DNA of 64,000 nucleotides from Dehalococcoidia bacterium (GTDB lineage Bacteria; Chloroflexota; Dehalococcoidia; Lucifugimonadales; CATQGZ01): NCBI GenBank assembly GCA_965223945.1, contig CBDCXW010000003.1, positions 30,841 through 94,840 of the forward strand, read 5' to 3'. The stretch's first letter is position 1, and each line of letters opens with the position of its first letter. This document shows positions 1 to 49,767 of the stretch, piece by piece. The notes beneath the pieces are model-generated. The model was not told the origin of the DNA and ran no database searches. It saw only the letters and a program-made list of their open reading frames with translations. The translations under genes and the position numbers were made by a program.

Positions 1-2618
1 GCTTCCAGCCTCACGGTGCAGGCGCCCGGCACCGCCGCCGGCCCATTCGGACTCGGACCGGCAATGAGACGCGAGTCGTCGTCCCCGGGGGCTTCACGGG
101 GACCCTTGTGGCGCATGTCCCACACGAACCGGTTCATACCGGCTTCCGCCGGGAGCCCGCTAAACCTACTCACCTCGCGCCCCTCCGCATCGAGGAACGT
201 GAGCGCCGCCCCGTCCGCCGACCGCTCCCGCAGGTGGTACGTGATTATCGCCCCCTCTGGAGGATTCTTGCCCGCATCCAGAAAGACGCGGTCCTTCGCG
301 CCATCCGGATTCTCCGTCTCTTCGAAGGTCGCGGCGGCTCCTATGGCGACCCAGTAGTTCTTCCCCGGACCGAACCGCTCCGGGCCGAGCTTGCCGAGAA
401 TGTTCAGCGCGCGGAAGGCCGGCCGGGGCTCGAACAGACGGACCTCGTCCTCTAGCGCCTCCTTCGAAATCACACGGAGCGGCGTCACGTCGTCGAGTAT
501 CCAGAACGACCTCCCGTGGGTAGCGACCACCAGGTCTGCATCCTTGACGAGCAGGTCGTGAATGGGTGTCACAGGCAGGTTCAGTCGCAGCGATTGCCAC
601 GAGGCCCCCGAGTCCGGCGACACATAGACGCCCGTCTCGGTACCGACGTATATCAGGCCGGCCCTCACCGGGTCTTCCCGGACGACGCGCACGAACTCCC
701 CCTCCGGTATCCCGTCGGCTATCGACTCCCAGCTCCTCCCGCCGTCCCGCGTGCGGTACAGGTACGCCGAATAGTCGTCGAGCTTGTAGTTCCACGCCGC
801 GAGCCAGGCCGTGTCCGGTTCGTGGAGAGACAGCTCGATCATGCTCACCGTCGCCCACTCAGGGAGGCCCGGCGGCGTCACGGCGTCCCAGGTCGCGCCA
901 CCGTCTCTCGAGACATGGACGAGGCCATCGTCGGTGCCAGCCCAGAATACGCCGGGCTCGTGGGGCGACTCGGCGAACGAGAATATGGTGCAGTAGACCT
1001 CCGCGCCCGACACGTCGCGGCTGATCGGCCCGCCGCCCGGTTCGCCCTTGTCCGGGTCGTTTCGCGTGAGGTCAGGAGACACCGCCTCCCAGCTCGTCCC
1101 CTCGTCCGTCGAGCGGAAGACTCTGTTGGCGGCGGCGTAGAGGACGTTGGGATCGTGAGGCGATATGACTATCGGGAAGGTCCATTGGAAGCGGTACTTC
1201 ATGTCCCGCGCGCCCAGACCGTACGACATCTCCGGCCACACGGTGATGATGCGCGACTCTCCGGTGGCGTGGTTATACCTGACGAGGGCGCCCCCGCCTC
1301 CAGGCGCGCTGCCGATCGCCCCGGAGTAGACGATGTCGGGGTTGTCGGGTCGCACCGCGACGTACCCGCTTTCCGAAGGCCCGACGGCGTAGCTGTCGGA
1401 GAAGGGGATGGCGCCCTTTATCGACCTGCTGGGAGTGCTGATTGCGCTGTTGTCCTGCTGGGTGCCGTAGACTCGGTACGGGTGCCGAGTGTCGACGGCG
1501 GCATGGTAGAACTGGGCCGTCGGCTGGTTGTATATGGTCGACCACGTCTCGCCGCTGTCGAAGGAGACGCACGCGCCGCCATCGTTCCCTTCGATCATCC
1601 TCCGAGGATCGCGGGGGTCGATCCACAGGTCGTGGTTGTCGCTGTGCGGCGTCGTCATCATCGAGAAAGTGCGCCCGCCGTCGTCCGACCTCCACGCCTG
1701 TATCGGGAGAGTCCACATGGTGTCCTCCCTGGTCGGGTGAGCGAAGATGTGGTGGTGATAGAAGGGGCGCTGCCTGACTATCGTGCTGTCGTTGACGCGC
1801 TCCCAGGTGTCGCCGCCATCGTCCGAGAGCAGCAGGACGCCGTCCTCGGCCTCGACGATCGCCCAGACACGCCCGAAGCGGGCCGGCGACGCCGCTACCC
1901 CTATCCGGCCCTTGATTCCCTCCGGCATGCCGGGCCGGTCAGTCAGATCGTGCCATGTGTCGCCGCCGTCCGTGGACCGCCACAGGCCGCTCTCCGGCCC
2001 GGCCCCGACAAGGCTCCACGGCGTACGCAGCGCCTGCCATATCGCCGCGTACAGGACCCGAGGGTTGCGTGGGTCCATGGACAGGTCGATCGCGCCAGCC
2101 CTCTCGCTCTTGAAGAGGACGCGCTCCCACGTGCCGCCGCCGTTCTTGGAGCGGAAGACTCCACGCTGCGCATTCGGGCCGAAGGCGTGGCCCAGCGCCG
2201 CGACGTAGAGCCGGTCGGGGTCTCGTGGATCGACCCGGACCCGCGAGACGTGCCGCGTGTCGTCCAGGCCGATATGCCTCCACGTCGCGCCTGCATCTGT
2301 TGACCGGTATATGCCATCGCCGTGTGAGACGTTGCTGCGAATGCACGCTTCTCCTGTTCCCGCATATATGACCGAGGGATCGGCGTCCGCCACGGCGAGG
2401 GCGCCCACGGAAGATGATCCGAAGAAGCCGTCCGAGATGTTGCGCCAGTACGTGCCTCCGTCCGTCGACTTCCAGACGCCGCCCGCGCACGCCCCGAAAT
2501 AGAAGGTCTGACGCTCCTCGGGGTCGCCAGCCACCGCCACGACGCGCCCTCCTCTGTGCGGCCCGATCGAGCGCCACCTCAGGGTGCTAAGATGCTCCGG
2601 TCGCAGTCTGATACTCAA
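1..2618 (-). CDS. VPS10/BNR-repeat glycosyl-hydrolase-like protein (3' end runs off the window)
   Basis: Read manually; absent from the ORF track. TTG at 2618 with AGGAGG RBS; MSIRLRPEHLSTLRWRSIGPHRGGRVVAVAGDP...GGVWKSTDGGTYW; many SxDGGxTW Asp-box repeats. Confidence 0.85.
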   Translation of the reverse strand, partial: MSIRLRPEHLSTLRWRSIGPHRGGRVVAVAGDPEERQTFYFGACAGGVWKSTDGGTYWRNISDGFFGSSSVGALAVADADPSVIYAGTGEACIRSNVSHGDGIYRSTDAGATWRHIGLDDTRHVSRVRVDPRDPDRLYVAALGHAFGPNAQRGVFRSKNGGGTWERVLFKSERAGAIDLSMDPRNPRVLYAAIWQALRTPWSLVGAGPESGLWRSTDGGDTWHDLTDRPGMPEGIKGRIGVAASPARFGRVWAIVEAEDGVLLLSDDGGDTWERVNDSTIVRQRPFYHHHIFAHPTREDTMWTLPIQAWRSDDGGRTFSMMTTPHSDNHDLWIDPRDPRRMIEGNDGGACVSFDSGETWSTIYNQPTAQFYHAAVDTRHPYRVYGTQQDNSAISTPSRSIKGAIPFSDSYAVGPSESGYVAVRPDNPDIVYSGAIGSAPGGGGALVRYNHATGESRIITVWPEMSYGLGARDMKYRFQWTFPIVISPHDPNVLYAAANRVFRSTDEGTSWEAVSPDLTRNDPDKGEPGGGPISRDVSGAEVYCTIFSFAESPHEPGVFWAGTDDGLVHVSRDGGATWDAVTPPGLPEWATVSMIELSLHEPDTAWLAAWNYKLDDYSAYLYRTRDGGRSWESIADGIPEGEFVRVVREDPVRAGLIYVGTETGVYVSPDSGASWQSLRLNLPVTPIHDLLVKDADLVVATHGRSFWILDDVTPLRVISKEALEDEVRLFEPRPAFRALNILGKLGPERFGPGKNYWVAIGAAATFEETENPDGAKDRVFLDAGKNPPEGAIITYHLRERSADGAALTFLDAEGREVSRFSGLPAEAGMNRFVWDMRHKGPREAPGDDDSRLIAGPSPNGPAAVPGACTVRLE

Positions 2619-2859
2619 TGGGGTCCTCCTGTTCGACTCTTCATAGCCTGACCGCCGGGGCCGAACGGCCTCCGATTCTATCAGGGAAGGGGAGCCGCCG
2701 CGTCCGCCTGGATTATTGAGACTGCACCGATCCTCCCGGCGCTTGTCGGACTGATGCGGCAGATGGTACAAAGACCGGGGCCAGGGTGCTTACCCCTGGA
2801 AACTCGGCCACACGACGACGCAAATCCACGAGACTGCAAGAAAGGCAACGACGCTCGCA

Positions 2860-3681
2860 ATGGAAAGGTTGACACAACTATCACGGCGACTGACCGAAGC
2901 GCCCGCCTTCGAGCTCGGCATAGTCGCGATCATCATTATCAATGCCCTGCTGCTTGGAGTCGGTACTTCCCCCACGCTGGACCGGGGGTACGGAACCTGG
3001 ATAAGTATCGGATACCAGCTAGCGCTAGCCATATTCATCGTGGAGGCGCTGCTCAAGATGACGGCGTCATCGCCGCGCGTCGCAGGGTACTTCAAAGATG
3101 GCTGGAACGTGTTCGACTTCCTTGTCATAGTGTTCGCGCTGATCCCGGCGACCGGACAGTTCGCGCTGATCGCCCGGCTTGCGCGGCTGCTGCGGGTGCT
3201 GCGGCTCGTATCGACGATCAGAGACCTGCGGTTGATCGTGACCGCGCTCGTCCGTTCGATTCCCAGCGTAGGACACGTCATCATGCTGATGAGCATCATC
3301 GTGTATATCTACGCCATCTTCGGCTACCACCTCTTCAGCGAGCACGACCCCGAGAACTGGCGAAACTTGGGGGTTGCCACCCTGACGCTGTTTAACGTCA
3401 TCACGCTGGAAGGGTGGACTGTGGTCATGTTCACCGCGATGGACCTCCACCCGCTGGCGTGGGCTTACTTCGTCAGCTTCGTGATAGTCGGCACGTTCGT
3501 GGTGATCAATCTGTTCATCGCCATCATCATCAACAATCTGGATGAGGCGAAGCTCGAACGTCTCCGCGACCTGGAGCGCCCCGTGTCAAGGGAAGAGCTC
3601 CTGCGCGAGATCCGGGCCACTCAAGAAGCCCTTCAGCGGCTGGAGAGACGCATGGAGGACAACCAGGGAGAAACGTCCTAG
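2860..3681 (+). CDS. Bacterial voltage-gated cation channel (BacNav/NaChBac-like)
   Basis: Six TM segments, WNVFDF, S4 RLARLLRVLRLV, filter TLEGW, C-terminal coiled coil. Confidence 0.9.
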   Translation: MERLTQLSRRLTEAPAFELGIVAIIIINALLLGVGTSPTLDRGYGTWISIGYQLALAIFIVEALLKMTASSPRVAGYFKDGWNVFDFLVIVFALIPATGQFALIARLARLLRVLRLVSTIRDLRLIVTALVRSIPSVGHVIMLMSIIVYIYAIFGYHLFSEHDPENWRNLGVATLTLFNVITLEGWTVVMFTAMDLHPLAWAYFVSFVIVGTFVVINLFIAIIINNLDEAKLERLRDLERPVSREELLREIRATQEALQRLERRMEDNQGETS

Positions 3682-3690
3682 GGCGGCGGC

Positions 3691-5130
3691 TTAGAAGAGG
3701 TAGTCTTCGCCTACTACCTGGCGGATCAGTTGGCGGGAGCGCTGGCTGTTTCTGACTCGGGTCTCCAGCCTGTCAGGGTCGCACCAGAGCTCCATCACCC
3801 TGTCTATAAGACGCTGCTGCTCTACTCTGTACGCGGGGTCTCCGGCCAGATTATTGAACTCACCGGGGTCCATTTCGAGGTCGTATAGCTCGAGCTCGGG
3901 CGGGTGGCCGTGGCTGTAGCACAGCTTCCACCGTCCCTGCCGGAGCATCGCCCTCGGCCGGTCGGTCCCATGTGCCAGGTGCTCGACGAAGGCCTCGTCC
4001 CGCTCGTTGACAGACTCCCCGTTCAACAGAGGCAGGAGTGACGCGCCGTCCAGGTCCATGAAGGAGGTCTGTCCGGCGTCCATCCCGGCCATCTCCAGCA
4101 TTGTGGCAACGACGTCGACCAGGGTGACAGCGCCTCCAAATCGTTGACCACCCTCGATGACTCCGGGCCAGACGACGTGCAGTGGGACCCTCGCGGCCTG
4201 CTCGTAGAAGTTCATCTTGCGCCACAGGCCGTGCTCGCCAAGCGACTCGCCGTGGTCAGCCGTGTAGATGACGACGGTGTTCTCCGCCAGTCCCTGTTCG
4301 TCCAGTGTGTCCAGGAGCCGGCCGATCTTGTCGTCCAGGTAGCTGATTAGGCCATAGTAGGAAGCCCTGGCACGGCGTATCTCTTCGTCCGTATAGCCCC
4401 AGAATCCGAATGCCTGCCTGAGCCTGCTGGCGGCAGGAGGCAGGTTCTCCAGGTGGCCCGGCGGATTGTTGGGAAGGTCGGCGTGCTCCGGGTAGTACAT
4501 CGAGAAGTGCGGCTCCGGCGTGATGAGGGGGAAGTGGGGAAGATGGAATCCCACGCACAGCGCCCACGGCTGGTCGCGCCGCGACGGGTCGCGCAGGTAG
4601 GCGAGTGCGGCGGTCTCCATTGCGTCGTCGTTCTCTATATGATGGCTGGAGCCGGACCCCGCCTCTTGCACTTTGCCCCACGGCTCGTCCGCCGTTGGGA
4701 CGCCGTCTTCCCACAGGTGCATCGGCGTCCCGCCGTAGACGGCCTTTCCGAGGGGGCCTCCCCGCCTCGGGTCCACCGCGATCTGCTCTCGGAAGCCGTG
4801 AAGGTTGTCCAGGCCAATCAGGTGCATCTTTCCCGACAGCACGCTGTCGTAGCCTATCGACCGCAGCGCGTAAGGCCAAGTCGGAACGTCGGTCGGAAGA
4901 GGCTTCTCGTTGTCCCAACCCTCGCAGTTGGAGACGTATCTTCCCGTCAGGAAGGACAGACGCGACGGGACGCAGAGAGGCGCGTTGCAATACGCGGCGT
5001 CGAAGGTGGCGCCGGCTGCGGCCAGGCGCTCCATGTTGGGCGTCCGGACAAATGGGTGCCCGTAGGCGCCAGACCACATGGGCCCATGCTCGTCGGACAT
5101 GATCACGAGGAAGTTCGGCTGGTCCGGCAT
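3691..5130 (-). CDS. Sulfatase (choline-sulfatase-like)
   Basis: PNFLVIMSDEH, CVPSR formylglycine motif, GKMH, ADHGE; start MPDQ has a GGAG RBS. Confidence 0.9.
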   Translation of the reverse strand: MPDQPNFLVIMSDEHGPMWSGAYGHPFVRTPNMERLAAAGATFDAAYCNAPLCVPSRLSFLTGRYVSNCEGWDNEKPLPTDVPTWPYALRSIGYDSVLSGKMHLIGLDNLHGFREQIAVDPRRGGPLGKAVYGGTPMHLWEDGVPTADEPWGKVQEAGSGSSHHIENDDAMETAALAYLRDPSRRDQPWALCVGFHLPHFPLITPEPHFSMYYPEHADLPNNPPGHLENLPPAASRLRQAFGFWGYTDEEIRRARASYYGLISYLDDKIGRLLDTLDEQGLAENTVVIYTADHGESLGEHGLWRKMNFYEQAARVPLHVVWPGVIEGGQRFGGAVTLVDVVATMLEMAGMDAGQTSFMDLDGASLLPLLNGESVNERDEAFVEHLAHGTDRPRAMLRQGRWKLCYSHGHPPELELYDLEMDPGEFNNLAGDPAYRVEQQRLIDRVMELWCDPDRLETRVRNSQRSRQLIRQVVGEDYLF

Positions 5131-5225
5131 AGGCAGGTCTCCGCAACGTGATGTGGCTGGGGCATAGTAGCACACGTCTCCTCCACACAGCTTCAGCCCC
5201 GCATTAGCAGGCTGCTGAGGAACGG

Positions 5226-5311
5226 CGTGTGCAGAGAGGCGGAGCCCCTTTGCCGGGAGTCTAAGGGTGTCCCTCAGGCTCCATGATCTCTCCCCTTCCT
5301 AGATGGGAAGG
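5226..5311. repeat. Intergenic REP-like repeat (second copy ~15279-15352)
   Basis: GTGTGCAGAG.GGC...GCCCCTTTGCCGGGAGTC..AGG.T..CCCTCAGGC...CTCTCCCCTTCCTA shared by both sites. Confidence 0.7.
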
Positions 5312-5351
5312 GGGCGGGAAAAAGGCCCGGACGAGCTCTTCCTCAATCTAG

Positions 5352-6550
5352 GGATACTCTGAGCAAGTCTGTTGGGATGTCATAGTACCATGTCACCGAG
5401 AAGAGAGAGGATGTTTGGGGTGAACGATGCTATGGACCAGCCAACATTTGCGGATCTGGAATACGACGGCAAGAAGCGCAAGACCCGCCGGGAGATATTC
5501 CTGGAGCGCATGGATAGTCTGATCCCGTGGGATCAGATAGAAGAGCGTATCCGCCCCTTCTATCCCAAGGCGGGCCGAGGCCGAAGACCGTATGAGTTGT
5601 CGGTGATGCTGCGGATACACTGCGTGCAGTTGTTCTACAACCTGAGTGACCCTGGTATGGAGGACATGCTCTACGAGGTCGAGTCGGTGAGACGGTTCGT
5701 AGGTCTGAGGCTGTCAGGCCCGCTGCCGGACGAGACGACGATCCTGAACTTCCGTCATCTGTTGGAAGAGCACGAGTTGGGGCAGAGTCTGTTCGAGGAG
5801 ATCAACCGTCATCTCGAATCCCAGGGACTGCGGCTTCGGGAGGGGACGATCGTGGACGCGAGCATCATCGAGGCGCCGTCATCGACGAAGAATCGTGCTG
5901 GTGATCGCGACCCTGAGATGCGTCAGACGAAGAAGGGGAACGAGTGGCACTTTGGGATGAAGGTACACATCGGTGCGGACGCTGAGACGGGAGTAGTGCA
6001 TAGCATATCTACGACATCGGCGAACGTGCATGACGTGACAGAGGCGCACCGGCTGCTTCACGGCGGAGAGAAACGGGTGTGGGGCGATGCGGGGTATCAG
6101 GGAGTCGACAAGCGTGCGGAGAACCGTGAGTTGGGTGTGGACTGGCAGGTAGCGATGAGGCCCGGCCGGCGACGGCAACTGGGGCAAGGGAGCTGTGAGG
6201 CGCTTGCGGAGAAGCACAAAGCATCGATCAGGGCGAAGGTGGAGCATCCGTTCCTGTACGTGAAGCGGCACTTTGGGTACGCCAAGGTCCGGTACCGAGG
6301 GCTGGCTAAGAACACGCAACGACTGATGTTGCTGCTTGGGCTGACCAACCTGATAACGACAGAGCGTTACCTGGTGGCCTGATGGAGGTGAAGTGCGCCC
6401 AAAACTAAAGAACTGGGCGACGAGACATCCCGGCAGAGCCGTTTTAGGGCGATGGCAGCATCAATCGGCATGCAATAAAAGAGCGGACATCCCCGTCAAT
6501 ATCCCTTCTGTACACCCCATACGGCTTACACGAAGTTGTTCAGAGGTTCC
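5352..6550 (+). mobile_element. IS5-family insertion sequence
   Basis: Imperfect TIRs GGATACTCTGAGCAAG / rc GGAACCTCTGAACAAC; CTAG duplication at 5348-5351 and 6551-6554. Confidence 0.92.
5432..6382 (+). CDS. IS5-family DDE transposase
   Basis: PDETTILNFRHLLE, IVDASII, HFGMKVHIG, GDAGY, RAKVEHPF, KVRYRGL. Confidence 0.95.
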   Translation: MDQPTFADLEYDGKKRKTRREIFLERMDSLIPWDQIEERIRPFYPKAGRGRRPYELSVMLRIHCVQLFYNLSDPGMEDMLYEVESVRRFVGLRLSGPLPDETTILNFRHLLEEHELGQSLFEEINRHLESQGLRLREGTIVDASIIEAPSSTKNRAGDRDPEMRQTKKGNEWHFGMKVHIGADAETGVVHSISTTSANVHDVTEAHRLLHGGEKRVWGDAGYQGVDKRAENRELGVDWQVAMRPGRRRQLGQGSCEALAEKHKASIRAKVEHPFLYVKRHFGYAKVRYRGLAKNTQRLMLLLGLTNLITTERYLVA

Positions 6551-12450: not shown

Positions 12451-12702
12451 GAGGCTTGACAAACAGAACGCCTGTCCGCATAATGGGAGCCAATCCAGGC
12501 GCCGAGGCTGAAGCCCGAACCCGGGAATGGGGAATGAGACAAATGGCACAAAATGAGGCAGTTTCCCAGAAGGTCGCGGCTCCGCCCCGAATAAACCGGC
12601 CCGGATTAGCTACGAATCTAGTGTCCCACAATCGTCCGAGTTCGTTCCTTATCCGTCCCAGAATCTCCGTTGCGTGTCCCGGAGGCGTCTCGCCGGTGTC
12701 AC
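12451..12702 (+). repeat. Non-coding element: sigma70 promoter with LexA-like box plus 11-bp-phased YGTCYC array (copy 1)
   Basis: TTGACA(12456)-17-CATAAT(12479) with AGAAC-GCCT-GTCCG; array units at about 12622, 12633, 12643, 12654, 12675, 12686, 12697; homologous to 46642-46877. Confidence 0.75.
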
Positions 12703-13027
12703 TCTCACCCCAGTCCTTCCCGCTCCAATGGACGGATGGAAGCCTCTTTTCCCTGTCGGGACCCACAGGACAGTGGGCGCGCGCCTGTCGCAATATTGCT
12801 GCGGGACCATCGCGTTTCTGCCGCATCTCTCTTGCAGAGGTGTCGAAAACCCGTTGACCAATTCTGAACCTCCAGCTATGGGGTCCCACAAAATGCAACA
12901 GTTTGCATCAATTTCGGCGAAACCCCAGGCACCCAGCTGGCTCGATCCAACCTTCATAGTACAGGTTTCGGCATGCTAAGATATGATTCGGCAGTATTCG
13001 AACGGACGAGAGACCCGGAAAACCGAC

Positions 13028-19547: not shown

Positions 19548-19625
19548 TGGGGACCTCCTCCTGTTGGGCCGGACGCGATTATAGGTCTGGGGCTCCGGTT
19601 AGGCAAGGTCGTGTCGGTCCTGGTG

Positions 19626-20193
19626 CAGGGCAATCGCATTTTGACATTGGCTCGCCTTCGGTGAGCGAGCCGGAGACGGCGAGGTGAGGCAGTGCCTGGC
19701 GCTGCTCGACGGAAAATTCTCCAGATGTGTCTCACTTGTTATCATTTATGGTGATTTCATAGCTGGGCGTCGAGATTTGGCGAGACACTTGCGAGACGTT
19801 CGCGAGACACTTGTGAGACACCTGTGAGACAGTGTTGCCGACAGGTACGGTGATGGTCCAACCGCAGAGTACGCAGAGAGCGCAGAGAGAGCGTCGGTGG
19901 TTGGCATAGGGAGGACCGTAGCACATGTGTGCGGGTCTGTCAAATGTCTGAACTGTGATCGAGGACCGAGAACAGCCTCCATTGGGTCTTGGACATGGCC
20001 TTCGATGAGGACCGGAGCAGGGGTCAGGACTGGCAATGCGGACCAGAATTTGGCGGTCGTCAGGCATATGGCGGTGAACATGCTCAAACAGGAAACAACC
20101 GCAAAGGTCGGTATCAAGGCCAAGCGGAAGAAGGCCGGATGGGACTATGACTACTTGCTCAAGGACCTCTCTACTTAAAATGCGATTGCCCTG
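19626..20193 (+). mobile_element. Non-autonomous ISAs1-ended cassette with transposase 3' remnant and GAGAC array
   Basis: 17-bp perfect TIR CAGGGCAATCGCATTTT; 10-bp TSD GGTCCTGGTG (19616-19625, 20194-20203); remnant NLAVVRHMAVNMLKQE...KRKKAGWD.DYL. Confidence 0.88.
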
Positions 20194-20226
20194 GGTCCTG
20201 GTGCCGTGTGCTAGAATCCGGCGAGC

Positions 20227-25298: not shown

Positions 25299-25328
25299 AT
25301 TATACGAACGGATGTGCGTGGTTGTCAA
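25299..25328 (-). promoter_or_regulatory. Sigma70 promoter with LexA-type box for the terminase-like gene
   Basis: TTGACA-18-TATAAT on the minus strand; CGAAC-GGAT-GTGCG at 25305-25318 in the spacer. Confidence 0.8.
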
Positions 25329-43878: not shown

Positions 43879-44622
43879 ATGCCCAGCTACGGCGTCACTC
43901 TCCTGTCCGGCGGACTTGACTCCACCACCGTGGCGGCCTACGCGAAAGACCGCGTCGACAACATGTCGGCGATCACCTTCCACTACGGCCAGAGCCACTC
44001 CAGGGAGGTCGACTGCGCGGCACGAATCGCGGGCATCATGGGCATCGAGCACAAGCTCCTCGATATCTCCTTTCTCTCGGATGTCGCCTGGTACTCCGCC
44101 CTGACCAACCCCGACCAGTTCCCGGCGCCGTCGGGACGCTCCGGCGAGGAGATCGGCCACGGCGTCCCGATAACCTACGTCCCTTTGCGCAACACCATAT
44201 TCCTGTCGCTAGCGGCGGCCTACCTGGAGAGCCGGGTGCTGTACGCAATCGAGGTCGAGAGCGTCGACGCCTCGGAAGTGGCGGCCTCCGTGTACGTGGC
44301 CCCCAACGCGCTCGACTACAGCGGCTACCCCGACTGCCGCCCCGAGTTCTACGAGAGCATGAGGCGGACGATGGAGCTGGGCAGCAAGCTATGGACCGAG
44401 TACGGGGTGCCGATCAGGATCGAGACTCCGATCATCGACCTCACGAAGGCCGAGATAGCGACGCTCGGAACAAGGCTCGGGGCGCCGCTGGAGCAAACCT
44501 GGAGCTGCTACGAGGGCGGCGAGGTCCCCTGCGGCTCGTGCGACAGCTGCATCCTGCGAGCCAGGGGGTTCGCCGAGGCCGGCATGCCCGACCCCCTGCT
44601 CGTGAGCCTCGGCAGGGCCTGA
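43879..44622 (+). CDS. queC: 7-cyano-7-deazaguanine synthase
   Basis: LSGGLDS, YVPLRN, YPDCR, SCY, CGSCDSC. Confidence 0.95.
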   Translation: MPSYGVTLLSGGLDSTTVAAYAKDRVDNMSAITFHYGQSHSREVDCAARIAGIMGIEHKLLDISFLSDVAWYSALTNPDQFPAPSGRSGEEIGHGVPITYVPLRNTIFLSLAAAYLESRVLYAIEVESVDASEVAASVYVAPNALDYSGYPDCRPEFYESMRRTMELGSKLWTEYGVPIRIETPIIDLTKAEIATLGTRLGAPLEQTWSCYEGGEVPCGSCDSCILRARGFAEAGMPDPLLVSLGRA

Positions 44623-44624
44623 AC

Positions 44625-45332
44625 GTGCTTCGGGTGAGCCGGATGCCTTCGGGTGAGCCGGAGATATTCCGGTCGATCCAGGGCGAGGGCGTCTCGGCGG
44701 GGACGCCCTCGGTCTTCCTGAGACTGGGCCTGTGCAACCTCGCCTGTTCCTGGTGCGACACGAAATACACATGGGACTGGGCCTCGTACGACTACGACGA
44801 GCAGGTGATGCTGATCGACGAGACGGAGGCCGAGCGCCGGATACTTGGCTTCGACCTCCCGCACCTGGTCATCACCGGGGGCGAGCCCATGATTCAGCAG
44901 GCGGCCCTGGCGCCTCTGGCGACGTCGCTGAAGGGCAGGGGGTTCTCCTGCGAGTTGGAGACGAACGGAACGCTGGCGCCGGTGCCGGAGATGGTCGAGG
45001 CGGTGTCGCAGTGGAACGTGTCGCCGAAGCTCGACAACTCGGGCAACCCGCGTGGCCGCCGCGAAGTCCCGGAGGCGCTGTCGGCCTTCCGCAAGATTGA
45101 CTCCGCGTTCTTCAAGTTCGTCGTCACCGGGCCCTCCGATCTCGACGAGGTGTCCGCGCTGGTCGAAAGGTACGACCTGCCATCGGAGCGCGTCGTCCTG
45201 ATGCCGGAGGGGACCACGGCAGACGTCGTCAACGAGCGCGGCGCATGGCTGGCCGAGGCGTGCGCCGAGCGCGGATTCCGCTTCTCGACCCGGCTCCACA
45301 TCCTGCTGTGGGGAGACAAGCGGGGGCGGTAG
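44625..45332 (+). CDS. queE: 7-carboxy-7-deazaguanine synthase (radical SAM)
   Basis: SIQGEG, CNLACSWCDT, TGGEP, ETNG, VSPK, RLH. Confidence 0.95.
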   Translation: MLRVSRMPSGEPEIFRSIQGEGVSAGTPSVFLRLGLCNLACSWCDTKYTWDWASYDYDEQVMLIDETEAERRILGFDLPHLVITGGEPMIQQAALAPLATSLKGRGFSCELETNGTLAPVPEMVEAVSQWNVSPKLDNSGNPRGRREVPEALSAFRKIDSAFFKFVVTGPSDLDEVSALVERYDLPSERVVLMPEGTTADVVNERGAWLAEACAERGFRFSTRLHILLWGDKRGR

Positions 45333-45333
45333 A

Positions 45334-46116
45334 ATGGGGATGAGAGTCGCCGGTCTGACGTTAGTGTTGCTATGTCCGACATTGTTCGCAATCGTCGTCT
45401 GTGAAGACGAGGAGCGATCGCCAGTGTCTGATTATGCGGCGGAGTGGGGATACCACGGGCCGCTAGGGCCGCAGAATTGGGCCTCGCTGTCTGAAGAGTA
45501 CACAGCCTGCGGCGACGGCAAACAGCAGTCTCCGATCGATATCACCGGATATGACGAGGGAGACGCCGAGCCCATTTCGTTTTCCTACGACACGGACGCG
45601 ACAGCAGTGCGCAATGACGGCAAGGCCGTGTATGTCGACTACGCGCCGGGCAGCACTCTAAGTGTCGGTCGGCGAACCTTCGAGCTGAAGTCGGGACACA
45701 TTCACTCACCCTCGGAGCATCGAATGGACGGTGTGAGCCTCGCGGCGGAGCTGCATCTGGTACACACGGATGCGGATGGACAGATGGCAGTAGCGGCACT
45801 GCTGTTCAGACTGGGCGAGCCCAGCCCCACGGTGCAGGCGATTCTCGATGCCGCCCCGGCTGTCGGCGGTACCGTCCGCGGCAACACTACCCTCAATGCA
45901 GGCGGTTACACGCCCGGCGAGCTCGGCTACTACCGGTACGACGGCTCACTGACGACTCCTCCGTGCTCTGAGCCGGTCGAATGGTACGTATTGCGAGAGC
46001 CGAAGACTATCTCGCCGGAACAGGTTGCCGACCTACAGGCGCTGAGCAGCGGTCCCAACAATCGTCCCATCCAACCCGAGAGCACCCGCGTGATAGTAGC
46101 CGTCGGAGCGTCTTAG
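45334..46116 (+). CDS. Alpha carbonic anhydrase, secreted
   Basis: WGY, QQSPIDI, HIHSPSEH, ELHLVH, GSLTTPPCSE, NNRP. Confidence 0.93.
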   Translation: MGMRVAGLTLVLLCPTLFAIVVCEDEERSPVSDYAAEWGYHGPLGPQNWASLSEEYTACGDGKQQSPIDITGYDEGDAEPISFSYDTDATAVRNDGKAVYVDYAPGSTLSVGRRTFELKSGHIHSPSEHRMDGVSLAAELHLVHTDADGQMAVAALLFRLGEPSPTVQAILDAAPAVGGTVRGNTTLNAGGYTPGELGYYRYDGSLTTPPCSEPVEWYVLREPKTISPEQVADLQALSSGPNNRPIQPESTRVIVAVGAS

Positions 46117-46277
46117 AGAGCGGCAAACGGGACTAATGCGACGGTCACTTGGACAAACAACACCTGCGTTCCATATTCAAGGGCGTGGTTCTTGGCATAG
46201 TCTCTTTTCTGATTGTCAAACTAATGCAGCTATTGTCCACAGGCCACCGAGCGGGTAGATCATGTTTACTGACCTAG

Positions 46278-46356
46278 GGATGGTCTGAATAAGTCCGTGG
46301 ACTGCAGTTCCACACATAGTGAATTAAGCCGTGCTGATGGGTTATTCAGAGCATCC
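46278..46356. mobile_element. 79-bp IS5-like MITE (family C)
   Basis: TIR GGATGGTCTGAATAA/TTATTCAGAGCATCC; CTAG TSD. Confidence 0.85.
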
Positions 46357-46360
46357 CTAG

Positions 46361-46640
46361 GCATTTTTCTCTAGTGCCTGGATCGATGTCCTGCCGGGAT
46401 GCACTGCTTGGGGCCACACTCGAGAGGAAGCGCTCTTGGCGTTGCAGGACGCGGCGGATGCATACATCGAGGACATGGAGGATGCGGGGGGAAACATCCC
46501 CGATCGCGGGCTTGAGATCGTGGAGGCTCCCCTAGTAACTGTGGCTCGATGATTCCGCCTCCCCACATCCTTCGACATCTCAGAGGGGTAACCGCCCGCA
46601 ACTTCATCCGGGCACTGGAACGAGATGGTTCCATATTAGG
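46361..46640 (+). pseudogene. Degraded hicB-hicA-like toxin-antitoxin pair
   Basis: ..AWIDVLPGCTAWGHTREEAL..* (ends 46552), overlapping MIPPPHILRHLRGVTARNFIRALERDG (truncated). Confidence 0.75.
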
Positions 46641-46641
46641 A

Positions 46642-46877
46642 GAGGCTTGACGAACAGAACATAAGTCTGCATAATGAGAAGAGTCGCCCTAGACGCCGAG
46701 GCTGAAGCCCACACTCCGGCAATGGAAAATGAGACAGTTTCACAGAAAATCGCGGCCCCGCCCGAACAAACCCGCCCCGACTAGCTACAATCAGGTGTCT
46801 CGCATGTGTCTCGGAACTGTTTCACAACCGTCTCATAAGTGACTCATAGCTGTCTCGCAATTGTCTCTCGTGTCTCA
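46642..46877 (+). repeat. Non-coding element: promoter with LexA-like box plus 11-bp-phased TGTCTC array (copy 2)
   Basis: TTGACG(46647)-17-CATAAT(46670), AGAAC-ATAA-GTCTG; units at 46796, 46807, 46818, 46829, 46840, 46851, 46862, 46871. Confidence 0.8.
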
Positions 46878-46986
46878 CGGCCCTCTCCCGCCAAGGAGAG
46901 GGGGCAAAGGGGCAAGAGGCGGCCTTGACGCTTGACCCCGCCGACATATAATGAGGCGCATTCCCGCGTAGTCGAGGCCAACGTCC

Positions 46987-47774
46987 ATGCCCAAGTTCGC
47001 AGCCAACCTGTCCATGATGTTCAACGAGGTCGGATTCTTGGACCGGTTCGACGGGGCAGCGCGCGCGGGGTTTTAGGGGTGTCGAGTACCTCTTCCCGTA
47101 CGACTATGACAAGGACGACCTGGCCGAGCGCCTGCACTGGTACGAGCTGACCCAGGTGCTGCACAACCTGCCCGCAGGCGATTGGGACGCCGGCGAGAGG
47201 GGCATCGCTTGCAATTCCGACCGGGTCGGGGAATTCCAGGACGGCGTAGGAGCGGCCATCGAGTTCGCGACGGCATTGAAGTGCCCGCAGGTCAACTGTC
47301 TCGCAGGGATCCCCCCCGAAGGCGTCGACCCTGAGAGGCTGCGTGAGACGTTCGTGTCTAACCTGAAGTTCGCCGCCCCCAGGCTGCAAGAGGCCGGGAT
47401 CAAGCTGCTGATAGAGCCGATAAACACCCGCGACATACCGGGCTTCTACCTCACTAACACCTCTCAGGCCCGATCGATCATCGGGGAGGTGGGCTCCGAC
47501 AACCTTGGGCTGCAGTACGACGTGTACCACATGCAGGTCATGGAGGGAGATCTCGCCCCGACCATCGAGGGCAACCTGGGACCTGATAGAGCACTTCCAG
47601 ATCGCTGACACACCCGGCCGCCACGAGCCGGGTACAGGCGAAATCAACTACCCCTTCCTGTTCGACCTCATAGACCGCACGGGGTACGAGGGCTGGATAG
47701 GCTGCGAGTATAAGCCAGCCGATACGACCGAGTCGGGGCTGGACTGGGTGAGGCCGTACCTCGACAGCCTGTAA
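46987..47774 (+). pseudogene. hyi: Hydroxypyruvate isomerase with two +1 frameshifts
   Basis: MPKFAANLS.., [26 protein letters not shown]; extra base in runs near 47071 and 47578. Confidence 0.85.
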
Positions 47775-47881
47775 GAGGGTGTTTCGAGGACCTTCCCTAG
47801 TGGTAGGGAAATATCAGAGTCGAGGAGGGGTCGGTTCCCGACAGCTCTATCTTCACCCTCACCTCAATCCTCTCCCGTCAA

Positions 47882-48003
47882 GAGACCTTTGCGTAACCTA
47901 CCGGACGAGGCGACGTCGGGAGTTGTAAACGACACCATCCTAGCTAAGCCCCCACCCCTCTGGATACCGGCCTTCGCCGGTATGACGGTTGTGCAAAGGT
48001 CTC
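47882..48003. mobile_element. MITE family B inside a REP loop
   Basis: GAGACCTTTGC TIR, GTCAA duplicated. Confidence 0.88.
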
Positions 48004-48054: not shown

Positions 48055-49767
48055 CCCGAATCCACCGATGCGGAGCGGCCTTGGGGTTGGAACAAGGGGT
48101 GAGGGCCGTGGGACGCGACGGTCCGCGCTCGATTCCGATAAATGGGGCCGGTGGCGGCCTTTGGTTGTCGTTGGGGGCGCCGATGGCGGTCCTGGGCAGC
48201 GGCGCTGGGGCGGGGTCGGCGGGACAGCATGCAGGGGAAGACAATCGCGGACCGGGCCGGTGCGACTCTGTGGGTCGGTTGGGTAGTCTGGTGGACGTGT
48301 CAGGCGCCGTCGGTGCCGTCAGGCAGGCAATGGCAGGGCTCGCAATCGAGCCAGGGCGCGAGTGAACTGGGTTTCCCAAGGCCAGCCCTGTGGCAGATGC
48401 AAAGTGAGGCGGCGGGCCGAGCGGGTGAGCCGTCCGGCCAGGGAGAAGAAGCGCCGCCGGAGGGTCTTGGTGGTCACCACCCCCTCGTCCAGACCGATGC
48501 GCGCGGTCCAGCGGGCCAGGTTATGGGCCAGCACCTGGACGGCCAGCCATGCGCCGTTGGCGGGGAAGCGGCCCGAGGGGAGATGGTTGAGGCCGACGCC
48601 GTGCTTGAGGTCTCGGATAGCATTCTCAATCTCGGCGTGGCGGCGATGGTCGGCCTCCAGTTCCAGGGTTTCCCCGTCCCGGTCGGTGATGAAGCCGTGA
48701 TAGCTGTAGCTGGCGAAGAGGGCCAGTTGGGAACCGGGCGTGGGCTTCACCCGCCGGACGATGAGCCGCACTGGGGCGGCTTCGGGCTCACCCTGGAAGG
48801 GAGTGTAGGTGGTCTCGGCCACGTCGGCGCCGCCGTCCATCCAGTAGGGGACGGGCGTCCAGTCCTCCTCGGGAATCGCCTCAATCAACTCCCTGAGGCG
48901 GGCGTGTTGGCGGATGGTGATGGAGAAGCGGACATCCATCTTGCGGCAGACGACGACCAGGGCGTGGGCATAGAAGCCGCTGTCGGCCCGCACCGTGAGT
49001 TGTCCTGTAGCCCCAGCATGGCGCACCCGGCCCACGGTCTCCCGCAGGAAGTGGGCGGCGCCCCGAACGGTGTTGGCGCGGCCCTCGCGCAGCCGAGACA
49101 TCAGCACGTCGCCGGTGCCGGCGGCGATGGCCAGCAGCGGGTGATAGCCCCGCTGGCCAGTGTAACCATGGTGACGCGCCCCCTCCTTGGCCAGTCCGTA
49201 GGTCTCGCACATGGTGGAGTCCAAGTCGATGGTCAACGGCCCTTCGCCGGGTCCCGCACCAGCGGCCCAGGCCCGGGACAGCAACTCCCGGCTCACCCGA
49301 TCCAACTGGCGGACGTGGCCCCACCGGAAGCTGCGCAGGAAAGTTCCCAGGGTGGATGGCGCCTTGACTACGCAGCCGATGGCGCCAGCTGTCCCGCCGG
49401 TACGCAACACGTCGGCGTCGTCAATGAAGTCGCCCCCAGCCAGCGCCGAGGCCACCAGGGTCAGCATCTTGTCTCCTGGGTTCGCTCGCCCCGGCGCGTC
49501 TCCCAGGTCGACGTGGCTGTCGACGACTTCACGCAGGCCCAGGTGCTGGGCTAGGGTCACCGGGAGGAGCAGCCCAGCATTGGCCACCAGGCGGTGGTCG
49601 TCGAAGGCGATACGGATGCGGTCGGGATGGTTGCGTGCTAGCATCTATCGGGTGCTCCTTGTTCTGGGGTCGGCTTTGCTGTTTCAAAACCATTATCCCA
49701 GATTCACAGGGGCACCCTCTTGCCGCTTCAGGACACTGACCCGACGCCCTCCTTCGGTGGATTCGGG
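48055..49767 (-). mobile_element. IS1380-family element, copy 2
   Basis: Near-identical to copy 1; perfect TSD GTAAG. Confidence 0.95.
48319..49644 (-). CDS. IS1380 transposase
   Basis: Same protein as 41210-42535. Confidence 0.93.
   Translation of the reverse strand: MLARNHPDRIRIAFDDHRLVANAGLLLPVTLAQHLGLREVVDSHVDLGDAPGRANPGDKMLTLVASALAGGDFIDDADVLRTGGTAGAIGCVVKAPSTLGTFLRSFRWGHVRQLDRVSRELLSRAWAAGAGPGEGPLTIDLDSTMCETYGLAKEGARHHGYTGQRGYHPLLAIAAGTGDVLMSRLREGRANTVRGAAHFLRETVGRVRHAGATGQLTVRADSGFYAHALVVVCRKMDVRFSITIRQHARLRELIEAIPEEDWTPVPYWMDGGADVAETTYTPFQGEPEAAPVRLIVRRVKPTPGSQLALFASYSYHGFITDRDGETLELEADHRRHAEIENAIRDLKHGVGLNHLPSGRFPANGAWLAVQVLAHNLARWTARIGLDEGVVTTKTLRRRFFSLAGRLTRSARRLTLHLPQGWPWETQFTRALARLRALPLPA

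Follow-up and report, generated by a model that had tools for sequence, protein, structure and literature searches.

We analysed a 64,000-nt stretch of a Dehalococcoidia genome (hereafter the window) in which an intergenic element at 46641-46906 lies between the 5' remnant of a hicA-like toxin gene and a gene resembling that for hydroxypyruvate isomerase (hyi). The element consists of a promoter, a conserved core and an array of short hexamers with an 11-bp period, and it belongs to a family of about 65 small non-coding cassettes found before numerous unrelated genes of a few uncultured Chloroflexota. It is a lineage-restricted, non-coding, promoter-carrying dispersed repeat that, from sequence comparison, we tentatively regard as a portable regulatory cassette acting on DNA. 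The source genome is referred to as G000 and its relatives as G001, G002, G003, G061 and G095; no gene finder was used, several gene names were assigned by eye, and copy counts depend on the regular expressions used.

Anatomy of the element

Comparison with homologous copies in G000, of which 28 complete ones with the same order of parts (B-type) were aligned (alignment A2) and made into a sequence-only profile (R1), divides the element as follows.

46641-46906, plus strand: whole B-type element (promoter P1, leader, U, K/T, R and hairpin), from blastn homology and the R1 profile
46647-46675, plus strand: promoter P1, TTGACG-17-CATAAT, promoter scan 10/12, the best-conserved part of alignment A2
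46657-46668, plus strand: GAAC-N4-GTCT box in the P1 spacer (sequence GAAC-ATAA-GTCT), SOS/LexA-box-like
46676-46728, plus strand: variable leader with short local hairpins, from alignment A2
46729-46737, plus strand: U, a single inverted unit, ATGAGACAG, complementary to the array unit
46738-46781, plus strand: conserved core K, from alignment A2
46782-46795, plus strand: T motif, TAGCTACAATCAGG, with AGCTA..A and the G of CGAAC as invariant columns of A2
46796-46876, plus strand: R array, eight TGTCTC-like hexamers with an 11-bp period
46882-46903, plus strand: GC-rich hairpin, CCCTCTCC-N6-GGAGAGGG, without a T-run, paired in the minimum free energy (MFE) fold

The first seven hexamers of the array (TGTCTC at 46796, TGTCTC at 46807, TGTTTC at 46818, CGTCTC at 46829, TGACTC at 46840, TGTCTC at 46851 and TGTCTC at 46862; together 46796-46867) follow one another at exact 11-bp steps, and an eighth, TGTCTC at 46871, lies 9 bp further on, just as the first-pass annotation of this DNA had described. 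Matches to TGTCTC-N5-TGTCTC with at most two mismatches number 16 in the window against 6.9 expected, a total that none of 100 shuffles reached; eight of these fall in the present array and four in the array of another element of the window, copy 1 (19782-19831). The same annotation had called this the cleanest array, which is true of its spacing but not of its sequence: only five of the eight hexamers are exact, and Tandem Repeats Finder at a minimum score of 30 reported the copy 1 array (19780-19831, period 11, 4.7 copies) and not that at 46796-46876, which was missed because of these inexact hexamers and because the 5-bp spacers differ. The array starts 121 bp downstream of the P1 -10 and ends 48 bp upstream of the -35 of P2, the proximal promoter of hyi itself. 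In our reading, its unit resembles the 11-nt stretch of P1 from the right half of its box through the -10 hexamer.

Similarity to other copies begins at 46641-46647 in blastn, and the R1 profile matches the element over C3:77487-77650 (window 46647-46810; E 8e-33). Terminal inverted repeats (TIRs) are absent at the ends of B-type copies, whose flanks differ directly 5' of about 46641 and whose 3' ends are ragged, and the earlier statement that no TIRs are obvious is borne out. Aligning all copies, proposed as the way to define ends and target preference, thereby gave a 5' start at 46641-46647 but no sharp 3' end, and no target duplication was recognised for B-type copies; nor was an exact empty site found at the three loci compared, where synteny is broken. 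The GC-rich hairpin was not called as a terminator by the promoter/terminator scan, and similar hairpins also follow several other copies. At least eight arrays, whatever their motif, finish with a common ...GCGTCTCGCCGG... unit, often followed by the CCCTCTCC...GGAGAGGG hairpin (for example at C8:552637, C2:290156 and C3:43296), and this shared terminal unit may be either an ancestral unit or a 3' boundary signal. Two candidate features were rejected. An internal second promoter at T, with a -10 of TACGAA type, lacks the conserved last T and was not called by the scan, and a coding role is contradicted by K frames that differ among copies through 1-nt indels in C-runs and by array frames that meet stops.

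A dispersed family with two architectures

The G000 assembly examined comprises 4.02 Mb in 8 contigs with 63% G+C and is 96% complete. When 46400-47100 was compared with it by blastn, dozens of matches to 46641-46841 were obtained at 68-85% identity, and these merge into 33 loci with a common order: P1, about 50 variable bases, one to three U units (ATG-xxx-ACA), a C-rich K, T with its invariant AGCTA, and R, which in B-type copies is built of 11-nt units starting YGT. R1 has 37 matches in G000. A stricter, composite screen, for which a copy needed a promoter with the box, a T motif and four or more phased units, returned 30 B-type copies together with 37 permuted copies, termed A-type, in which the order is R-K/T-U, with a long array ahead of K/T and inverted units behind. 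Two further members of the family lie in the window.

12456-12710, plus strand: further B-type copy, upstream of a nifS-like gene (R1 match C3:43296-43476, E 7.8e-39)
19626-20193, minus strand: copy 1, a 568-bp miniature inverted-repeat transposable element (MITE) with CAGGGCAATCGC... TIRs, the tail of an ISAs1-like transposase (by eye) and an A-type module

The first of these has its TGTCTC-N5-TGTCTC matches at 12675-12702. The element between hicA and hyi had previously been taken for a second copy of that at 19780, with homology beginning at about 46640. This identification does not stand, as copy 1 is a TIR-bounded MITE, flanked by a 10-bp target duplication (GGTCCTGGTG, at 19616-19625 and 20194-20203), whose permuted module has its promoter at about 19943-19915 and its array at 19831-19780. 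Pairwise alignment confines the similarity between copy 1 and the 46641-46906 element essentially to the array; homology from 46641-46647 onward does exist, but it is shared with the approximately 33 copies of the element's own type. A tblastn search found seven copies at 96-100% identity and one diverged copy, and the interior of copy 1 aligns closely (alignment A4) with a TIR-less A-type element directly upstream of recA. We rejected the possibility that the element is an intrinsic part of an ISAs1-like insertion sequence (IS) sharing the copy 1 TIRs, since the only longer copy of such an IS (C1:506497-510482, a nested mosaic) has no module at its ends. A leaderless open reading frame (ORF) through the copy 1 array was likewise rejected, as it is not kept in G002.

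Two B-type copies (C7:127732 and C8:514951) are found about 40 bp inwards of a CAGGGC(A/G)ATT.GCA... end of the copy 1 TIR kind, and at one of them a second such end is found in the same orientation 3' of the element. Two B-type elements are each cut by an IS, at C1:713118-715848 and C8:1220530-1222086, with their parts at C1:713118/715747 and C8:1220530/1221980; the former IS is about 2.5 kb long with IS21-like ORFs that look like istA/istB, and the latter is about 1.4 kb long with an ORF that looks like an integrase core, both named by eye.

Of 31 B-type copies whose ORFs were judged by eye, approximately 23 have a co-directional ORF that starts 200-570 nt downstream, another six face a convergent gene, and the last two are ambiguous. 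The genes downstream of B-type copies look like unrelated enzymes and have no functional theme, and five downstream ORFs checked in Pfam gave one IMS, one GNAT-like and one DUF1800 assignment and two without a match.

Distribution and acquisition

Outside G000, matches are present in three or four other Dehalococcoidia genomes from two families. A search of 151 genomes of the order, with strict filters and only 17 candidates scored per genome, gave profile matches (E <= 1e-6) in four, in families f1 and f48; an earlier, smaller search had given them in three of 61. G002 has 31 profile matches: one is a full B-type copy, and all others are U-K cores belonging to A-type copies, among which the core is about 90% alike. 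G061 has 16, ten of them full length (the coordinates equal those of G123, and the two are counted as one genome), G001 has two weak matches and G095 has one. A pattern search of genome contigs listed 52 loci, of which only two were confirmed, both in one Dehalococcoidia metagenome-assembled genome record, and each of two patterns had no match in JGI metagenome contigs. A phage origin was considered and rejected, as none of ten pattern matches in viral contigs was confirmed by R1 and the promoter pattern had no match. DNA runs from other studies, from near-identical strains, carry the hicA/element/hyi arrangement (X3 record 23, covering 46615-47069 with six differences) and likewise the hicA/element junction (X4 record 31, 46332-46762).

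Comparison with related genomes, which had been recommended as a search for empty alleles, was informative in part. Where G000 has a B-type copy before nifS and before htrA, the upstream regions of the nifS orthologues (G002, G001 and G061) and of the htrA orthologues (G002 and G061) are short, ordinary and free of the element, and hyi in G003 is preceded by a 130-bp element-free region, but an exact empty allele of the 46641 locus was not found. In G002, the region before hyi holds an A-type element with eleven TGTCAC units. The element-free nifS and htrA loci of relatives imply that the element is acquired rather than ancestral. At all three loci compared with G002, G001 and G061 (L039, L055 and window 43879-48000), the sequences to the left and to the right of the element map to separate regions in the relatives. 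The previous proposal that the element was placed here and may be mobile agrees with a sequence that is dispersed, multi-copy and acquired, but neither a mechanism of movement nor a target duplication was found. Several downstream genes retain a proximal promoter of their own, as is the case for hyi (P2), for nifS of G000 (in comparison with G002 and G001) and at two G061 loci. The region upstream of the nifS orthologue of G061 (L142) is filled by a repeat of about 70 bp (CCCTTGTTCCTCGTCCAGGGCGCCCACAAGGG...) that occurs at least six times in tandem.

Promoter P1 and its LexA-type box

The promoter noted in the first-pass annotation is real as a consensus match, TTGACG-17-CATAAT at 46647-46675 with a score of 10/12. 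A box of the form G[AC]AC-N4-GTN[CT] occupies a fixed place in the 17-bp spacer of P1 in 25 of the 28 A2 copies (chance 0.25% per 20-mer), and the remaining three have variants with one mismatch. Boxes of like layout are found at recA (in the spacer of the G002 promoter, beside the -35 in G000, and upstream of the gene in G001 and G061), twice at lexA of G000, and in the promoter of a 489-aa IMS-family (impB/mucB/samB), imuB-like gene of G000, a promoter whose first 14 nt are identical to many P1 copies. PMC3323433 gives GAAC-N4-GTTC as the LexA motif of Gram-positive bacteria and GTTC-N7-GTTC, a direct repeat with an 11-bp period, as that of Alphaproteobacteria. Given the like boxes at recA, lexA and the IMS-family gene and the GAAC-N4-GTTC LexA motif, P1 is a probable SOS-type promoter, and we consider the chances of its being under SOS/LexA control to be evenly balanced.

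The family itself reaches recA, where an A-type element lies directly upstream of the gene in both G000 and G002. In total, G000 contains 80 promoters of the form TTGAC-N-G[AC]AC-N4-GTN[CT]-...-TAnnnT, one of them in the window (25299-25328, minus strand); in 33 of them the T motif is missing within 330 nt, and these stand at the head of other repeat families, which have REP-like hairpins and leaders rich in C. In the GCAC-N4-GTGC subclass of these promoters, an ATG often follows 6-8 nt after the -10. Covariation of the P1 box with the array motif was considered and found to be weak or absent. The recA 5' regions of G000, G001, G002 and G003 (L133, L137, L138 and L135) have in all four cases a conserved TGATACGATT about 70 nt before the start codon, which is probably the real extended -10 of recA, and a TTGACA...TACAAT site further upstream at G000 recA may be a second promoter. 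Several G002 A-type copies (L038, L048 and L056) have CCACTGCC-like repeats of 8-9 bp in short runs just 5' of the -35.

Array variation and a proposed role at the DNA level

The consensus of the R unit is Y-G-T-C-(C/G)-C-R-N-A-A-G, its G and T being forced by the parsing. Array hexamers in G000 include TGTCTC (46796-46876 and about four other copies), TGTCGC, TGTTGC, TGTCCA and mixed TGTYCC/CGTACC, and those in G002 include TGTCGG and TGTCAC. Copies have one to three units in U and 4-10 in R. U tends to match the R of its own copy in reverse complement: the mean number of reverse-complement 7-mers shared is 1.65 in own pairs and 0.54 in other pairs, at least one is shared by 24 of 34 own pairs against 24% of other pairs, and none of 10000 permutations reached the own-pair mean, a test that the relatedness of the copies inflates. 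In 10 of the 34 copies U and R share no 7-mer, and some are clearly mismatched. At the orthologous site upstream of recA, G000 has TGTCTC in R and GAGACA in U, and G002 has TGTCGG in R and CCGACA in U, with promoter, T and K still alignable between the two elements. Gene conversion between nearby inverted arms can give such complementarity without selection.

The mechanism that we propose begins with P1 as a strong sigma-70-type promoter pointing through the array to hyi, a step that is well supported. The box in its spacer would be a LexA-type operator that keeps P1 silent until DNA damage, on which our judgement is equally poised. R and U would be 11-bp units amplified in tandem, with an invariant G-T and a bias towards YGTC.C...AA, and units placed one helical turn apart could offer a docking row for a protein on one face of the helix, a step that falls somewhat short of an even chance. 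The docking protein might be the repressor of the P1 box itself or else a factor of winged-helix type, and the array might act as an auxiliary operator, a sink or a roadblock between P1 and the downstream gene. The number of units would shift by slippage, and U and R would be kept alike by gene conversion or template switching between the inverted arms. Docking on DNA is favoured because G-T and the period are invariant, because the long array is far longer than its partner arm, and because there is no sign of an RNA fold.

A number of observations weigh against this proposal. The variation of array hexamers among copies fits one fixed protein specificity poorly, and the P1 box is unchanged across array motif types. 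GTCC, not GTTC, forms the right half of the box in 17 of 25 copies, LexA sites of the GAAC-N4-GTTC type are palindromes and not direct repeats, and 80 box promoters in 4 Mb, some before housekeeping-looking genes, are many for an SOS regulon. The array lies between the two promoters, beyond P1 and no less than 48 bp ahead of P2, a position unusual for activator sites. Finally, R always has the same sense on the transcribed strand and its complementarity to U is kept, which is equally a signature of base pairing. A bolder version of the proposal, in which the cassette is a horizontally spreading plug-in that wires arbitrary genes to the DNA-damage response, with a LexA-gated promoter and the array, whose complementarity to a template-like upstream unit is kept up by copying from arm to arm, as a length-tunable gate (repressor sink, roadblock or self-pairing leader), strikes us as distinctly unlikely.

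Alternative explanations

The alternative that survives best, possible though unlikely, places the function in RNA. P1 would yield a transcript of about 200-230 nt, either a non-coding RNA or a 5' leader, whose U would pair with any one of several R registers and leave the unstructured K/T as the loop, or else the C-rich, unstructured repeat tract would be a platform for Rho or an RNA-binding protein and would gate read-through. The module always lies downstream of a strong promoter with R in one sense, and both the own-pair excess of U/R complementarity and the compensatory change at the orthologous recA site are in its favour. In the MFE structure of a 229-nt putative transcript (-70.5 kcal/mol) U does pair with the sixth array unit, but the z-score is -0.82, leader folding z-scores are centred on 0 across the 28 copies, and RNAalifold on A2 finds no conserved pairs; the T motif, tried as a hairpin, has no covariation in A2 by eye and was rejected in that role. 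Rfam adds nothing, as a gathering-threshold scan of the window returned RNase P only and an E-value scan of 46500-47000 two chance-level matches (E 3 and 3.9). The copies without a shared 7-mer and the disparity in length between U and R sit poorly with pairing, and the kinship of copies and the neutral effect of gene conversion reduce the weight of the complementarity. For a protein platform, the first 150 nt have more C than G after 71 of the 80 box promoters, but of the arrays this holds for only 18 of 29, the other 11 being G-rich, and a universal Rho-loading tract was rejected on this count. RNA-library contigs cover part of the element (X17 record 11 at 46385-46763; X16 with a depth of 4.6-7 over 46606-46839), although they give neither start, strand nor level and DNA is possibly present in those libraries; RNA-run cover is zero in the bin 46840-46956, which proves nothing. 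An RNA run with the label of sponge metagenome contained a 0.06 share of the sequence words, and we claim no habitat on that basis.

Under a second alternative, which we think quite improbable, U, K/T and R are sites acting in cis for mobilisation: the arms would fold in single-stranded DNA and expose AGCTAYGA to a nuclease or recombinase acting in trans, in a rolling-circle or hairpin-recognising manner and switched on by a damage-controlled promoter. Such a process would suit the arms of inverted units that flank a conserved unpaired core in both architectures, the dispersed and patchy copies, the likeness of about 90% among the A-type cores of G002, and the synteny breaks at three of three loci. 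It is hard to reconcile with B-type copies that are 68-85% alike, which implies no recent burst, that have no target duplication or defined ends, and that have no match in viral contigs. A Y1 transposase (PF01797) was not found in the 96%-complete genome, in a search that did not extend to other HUH, Rep, relaxase, IS91 and recombinase families.

A third alternative, that the arrays are operators for one or more OmpR/PhoB-type regulators unrelated to LexA and link the genes to a two-component signal, accounts for TGT-initial direct hexamer repeats with an 11-bp period, and 11 Trans_reg_C domains are encoded in G000. It is nonetheless very improbable, as the arrays do not lie at or over a -35, the downstream genes have no common theme, no regulator gene is linked to the copies examined, and the promoter/K/T scaffold would be left unexplained. 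Least probable of all is that the array has no function and is a slippage minisatellite in a selfish or decaying repeat of which only the promoter matters, if anything: unit numbers of 1 to 10, degenerate units and the resemblance of the R unit to the box/-10 stretch of P1 (in line with an origin by local duplication) would agree with this, but arrays persist in both architectures, across three or four genomes from two families, without loss of G-T or the period, and U/R complementarity is maintained at orthologous sites.

Relation to known elements and significance

The cassette family looks undescribed, as we found no published description of it in the open-access literature, which leaves subscription papers uncovered. 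BOX elements of Streptococcus pneumoniae are likewise intergenic repeats built of modules, in which an internal module is repeated in tandem a variable number of times between conserved end modules; their modules, tens of bases long with strong RNA folds, are not known to carry a conserved promoter with an operator, and the cassette differs in these respects. Operators of the OmpR/PhoB family are direct hexamer repeats one helical turn apart, in 2-4 units at or just upstream of the -35, whereas the cassette has 4-10 units downstream of its promoter in a mobile scaffold, so that the period is alike and the position relative to the -35 is not. Plasmid partition sites and rolling-circle origins have 11-bp direct-repeat iterons beside a promoter or a nick-type motif; unlike these, the cassette has no linked partition or Rep gene, is present in dozens of chromosomal copies and varies in repeat sequence from copy to copy. 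The RNA of type III toxin-antitoxin systems (ToxI-like) also combines a promoter, a tandem repeat tract and a hairpin, with units of about 35 nt, in contrast to the 11-nt units of the cassette, which has no toxin gene downstream but a hyi-like gene here and unrelated ordinary enzymes elsewhere.

Correia elements, ERIC, REPINs and putative mobile promoters (Nijveen et al. 2012, PMC3575422) are likewise short, non-coding, multi-copy intergenic sequences that bear promoters of functional appearance before unrelated genes, and the repeats treated there are likewise patchy among taxa, with means of movement that are not known for many. The cassette is set apart from them, by comparison of descriptions rather than of sequences, through its fixed modular order with an operator box, its inverted arms made up of units, its lack of TIRs of its own and its two permuted architectures. 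With the LexA operators in PMC3323433, the P1 box shares the GAAC-N4-GT.. layout, and the array period of 11 (4 + 7) equals that of the alphaproteobacterial repeat; the right half of the P1 box is mostly GTCC, however, there are 80 promoters per genome, and the array hexamers vary beyond any LexA half-site.

If P1 is LexA-controlled, a mobile non-coding cassette would have multiplied an SOS-type promoter some 65-80 times in a 4-Mb genome, before metabolic and housekeeping genes, and would constitute a natural experiment in the expansion of a regulon through the spread of promoters. Should the bolder plug-in version also be true, the roughly 65 copies in a genome would make up an evolvable regulatory layer that responds to damage and also buffers free LexA. 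The two architectures, together with the concerted change of arms upstream of recA, offer a system in which to study how short phased repeats arise, stay matched and tune expression. The elements also mark synteny breakpoints and assembly-prone repeats in these uncultured genomes.

The hicBA remnant and hyi

The genes and features on either side of the element are these.

46262-46549, plus strand: hicB-like antitoxin gene, with an 87-bp MITE breaking it 12 nt past the likely ATG
46274-46360, no strand assigned: small MITE with inverted ends CTAGGGATG...CATCCCTAG inside hicB, from reading of the sequence
46549-46650, plus strand: hicA-like 5' remnant whose ATG overlaps the hicB stop, from alignment with seven HicA paralogues
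46925-46952, plus strand: P2, the proximal promoter of hyi itself, TTGACG-16-TATAAT, promoter scan 11/12, conserved upstream of the G002 orthologue
46988-47774, plus strand: hydroxypyruvate-isomerase-like gene (hyi; named by eye), from ORFs across a 1-nt frameshift near 47067

The earlier report that the element abuts a truncated hicA proved correct. The hicA-like frame aligns with the N-termini of seven HicA paralogues of G000 up to ...ERDG (codon 27, about 46629) and diverges beyond, continuing for seven unrelated codons to a stop inside the P1 -35 hexamer. The 33-aa frame has no Pfam match, and the HicA profile does not detect it even at E <= 10. The rest of hicA, its 3' portion, was not found downstream of the element, which points to deletion or recombination rather than a clean insertion at this junction. 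The element would account for the truncated toxin gene without invoking selection on hicA.

The remainder of hicB (46361-46549) reads AFFSSAWIDVLPGC... and matches Pfam HicB_lk_antitox with E 2.8e-5 and 24.7 bits, below the 27-bit cut-off; paralogues of the gene found by tblastn adjoin HicA profile matches. The 87-bp MITE within it has nine blastn matches in G000, five of them of at least 80 nt, numbers that are approximate because the query was offset (46264-46351). Since contig depth over 46274-46360 is 485-6202 in four public runs against tens for the flanks, with loose ends at 46274, this MITE is very abundant in the communities of those runs.

The break in hyi is due to one extra base in a T-run (47060-47075), and because all four public runs lack one base at 47067 or 47071, it probably reflects either an error of assembly or an indel specific to the strain, and not a pseudogene. 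Beyond hyi, a repeat region at 47776-48000 has depths from hundreds to 25000 and many loose ends and joints in the four runs, and looks like a REP-like dispersed repeat; it is adjoined by what looks, by eye, like an IS1380 transposase gene (48319-49644, minus strand).

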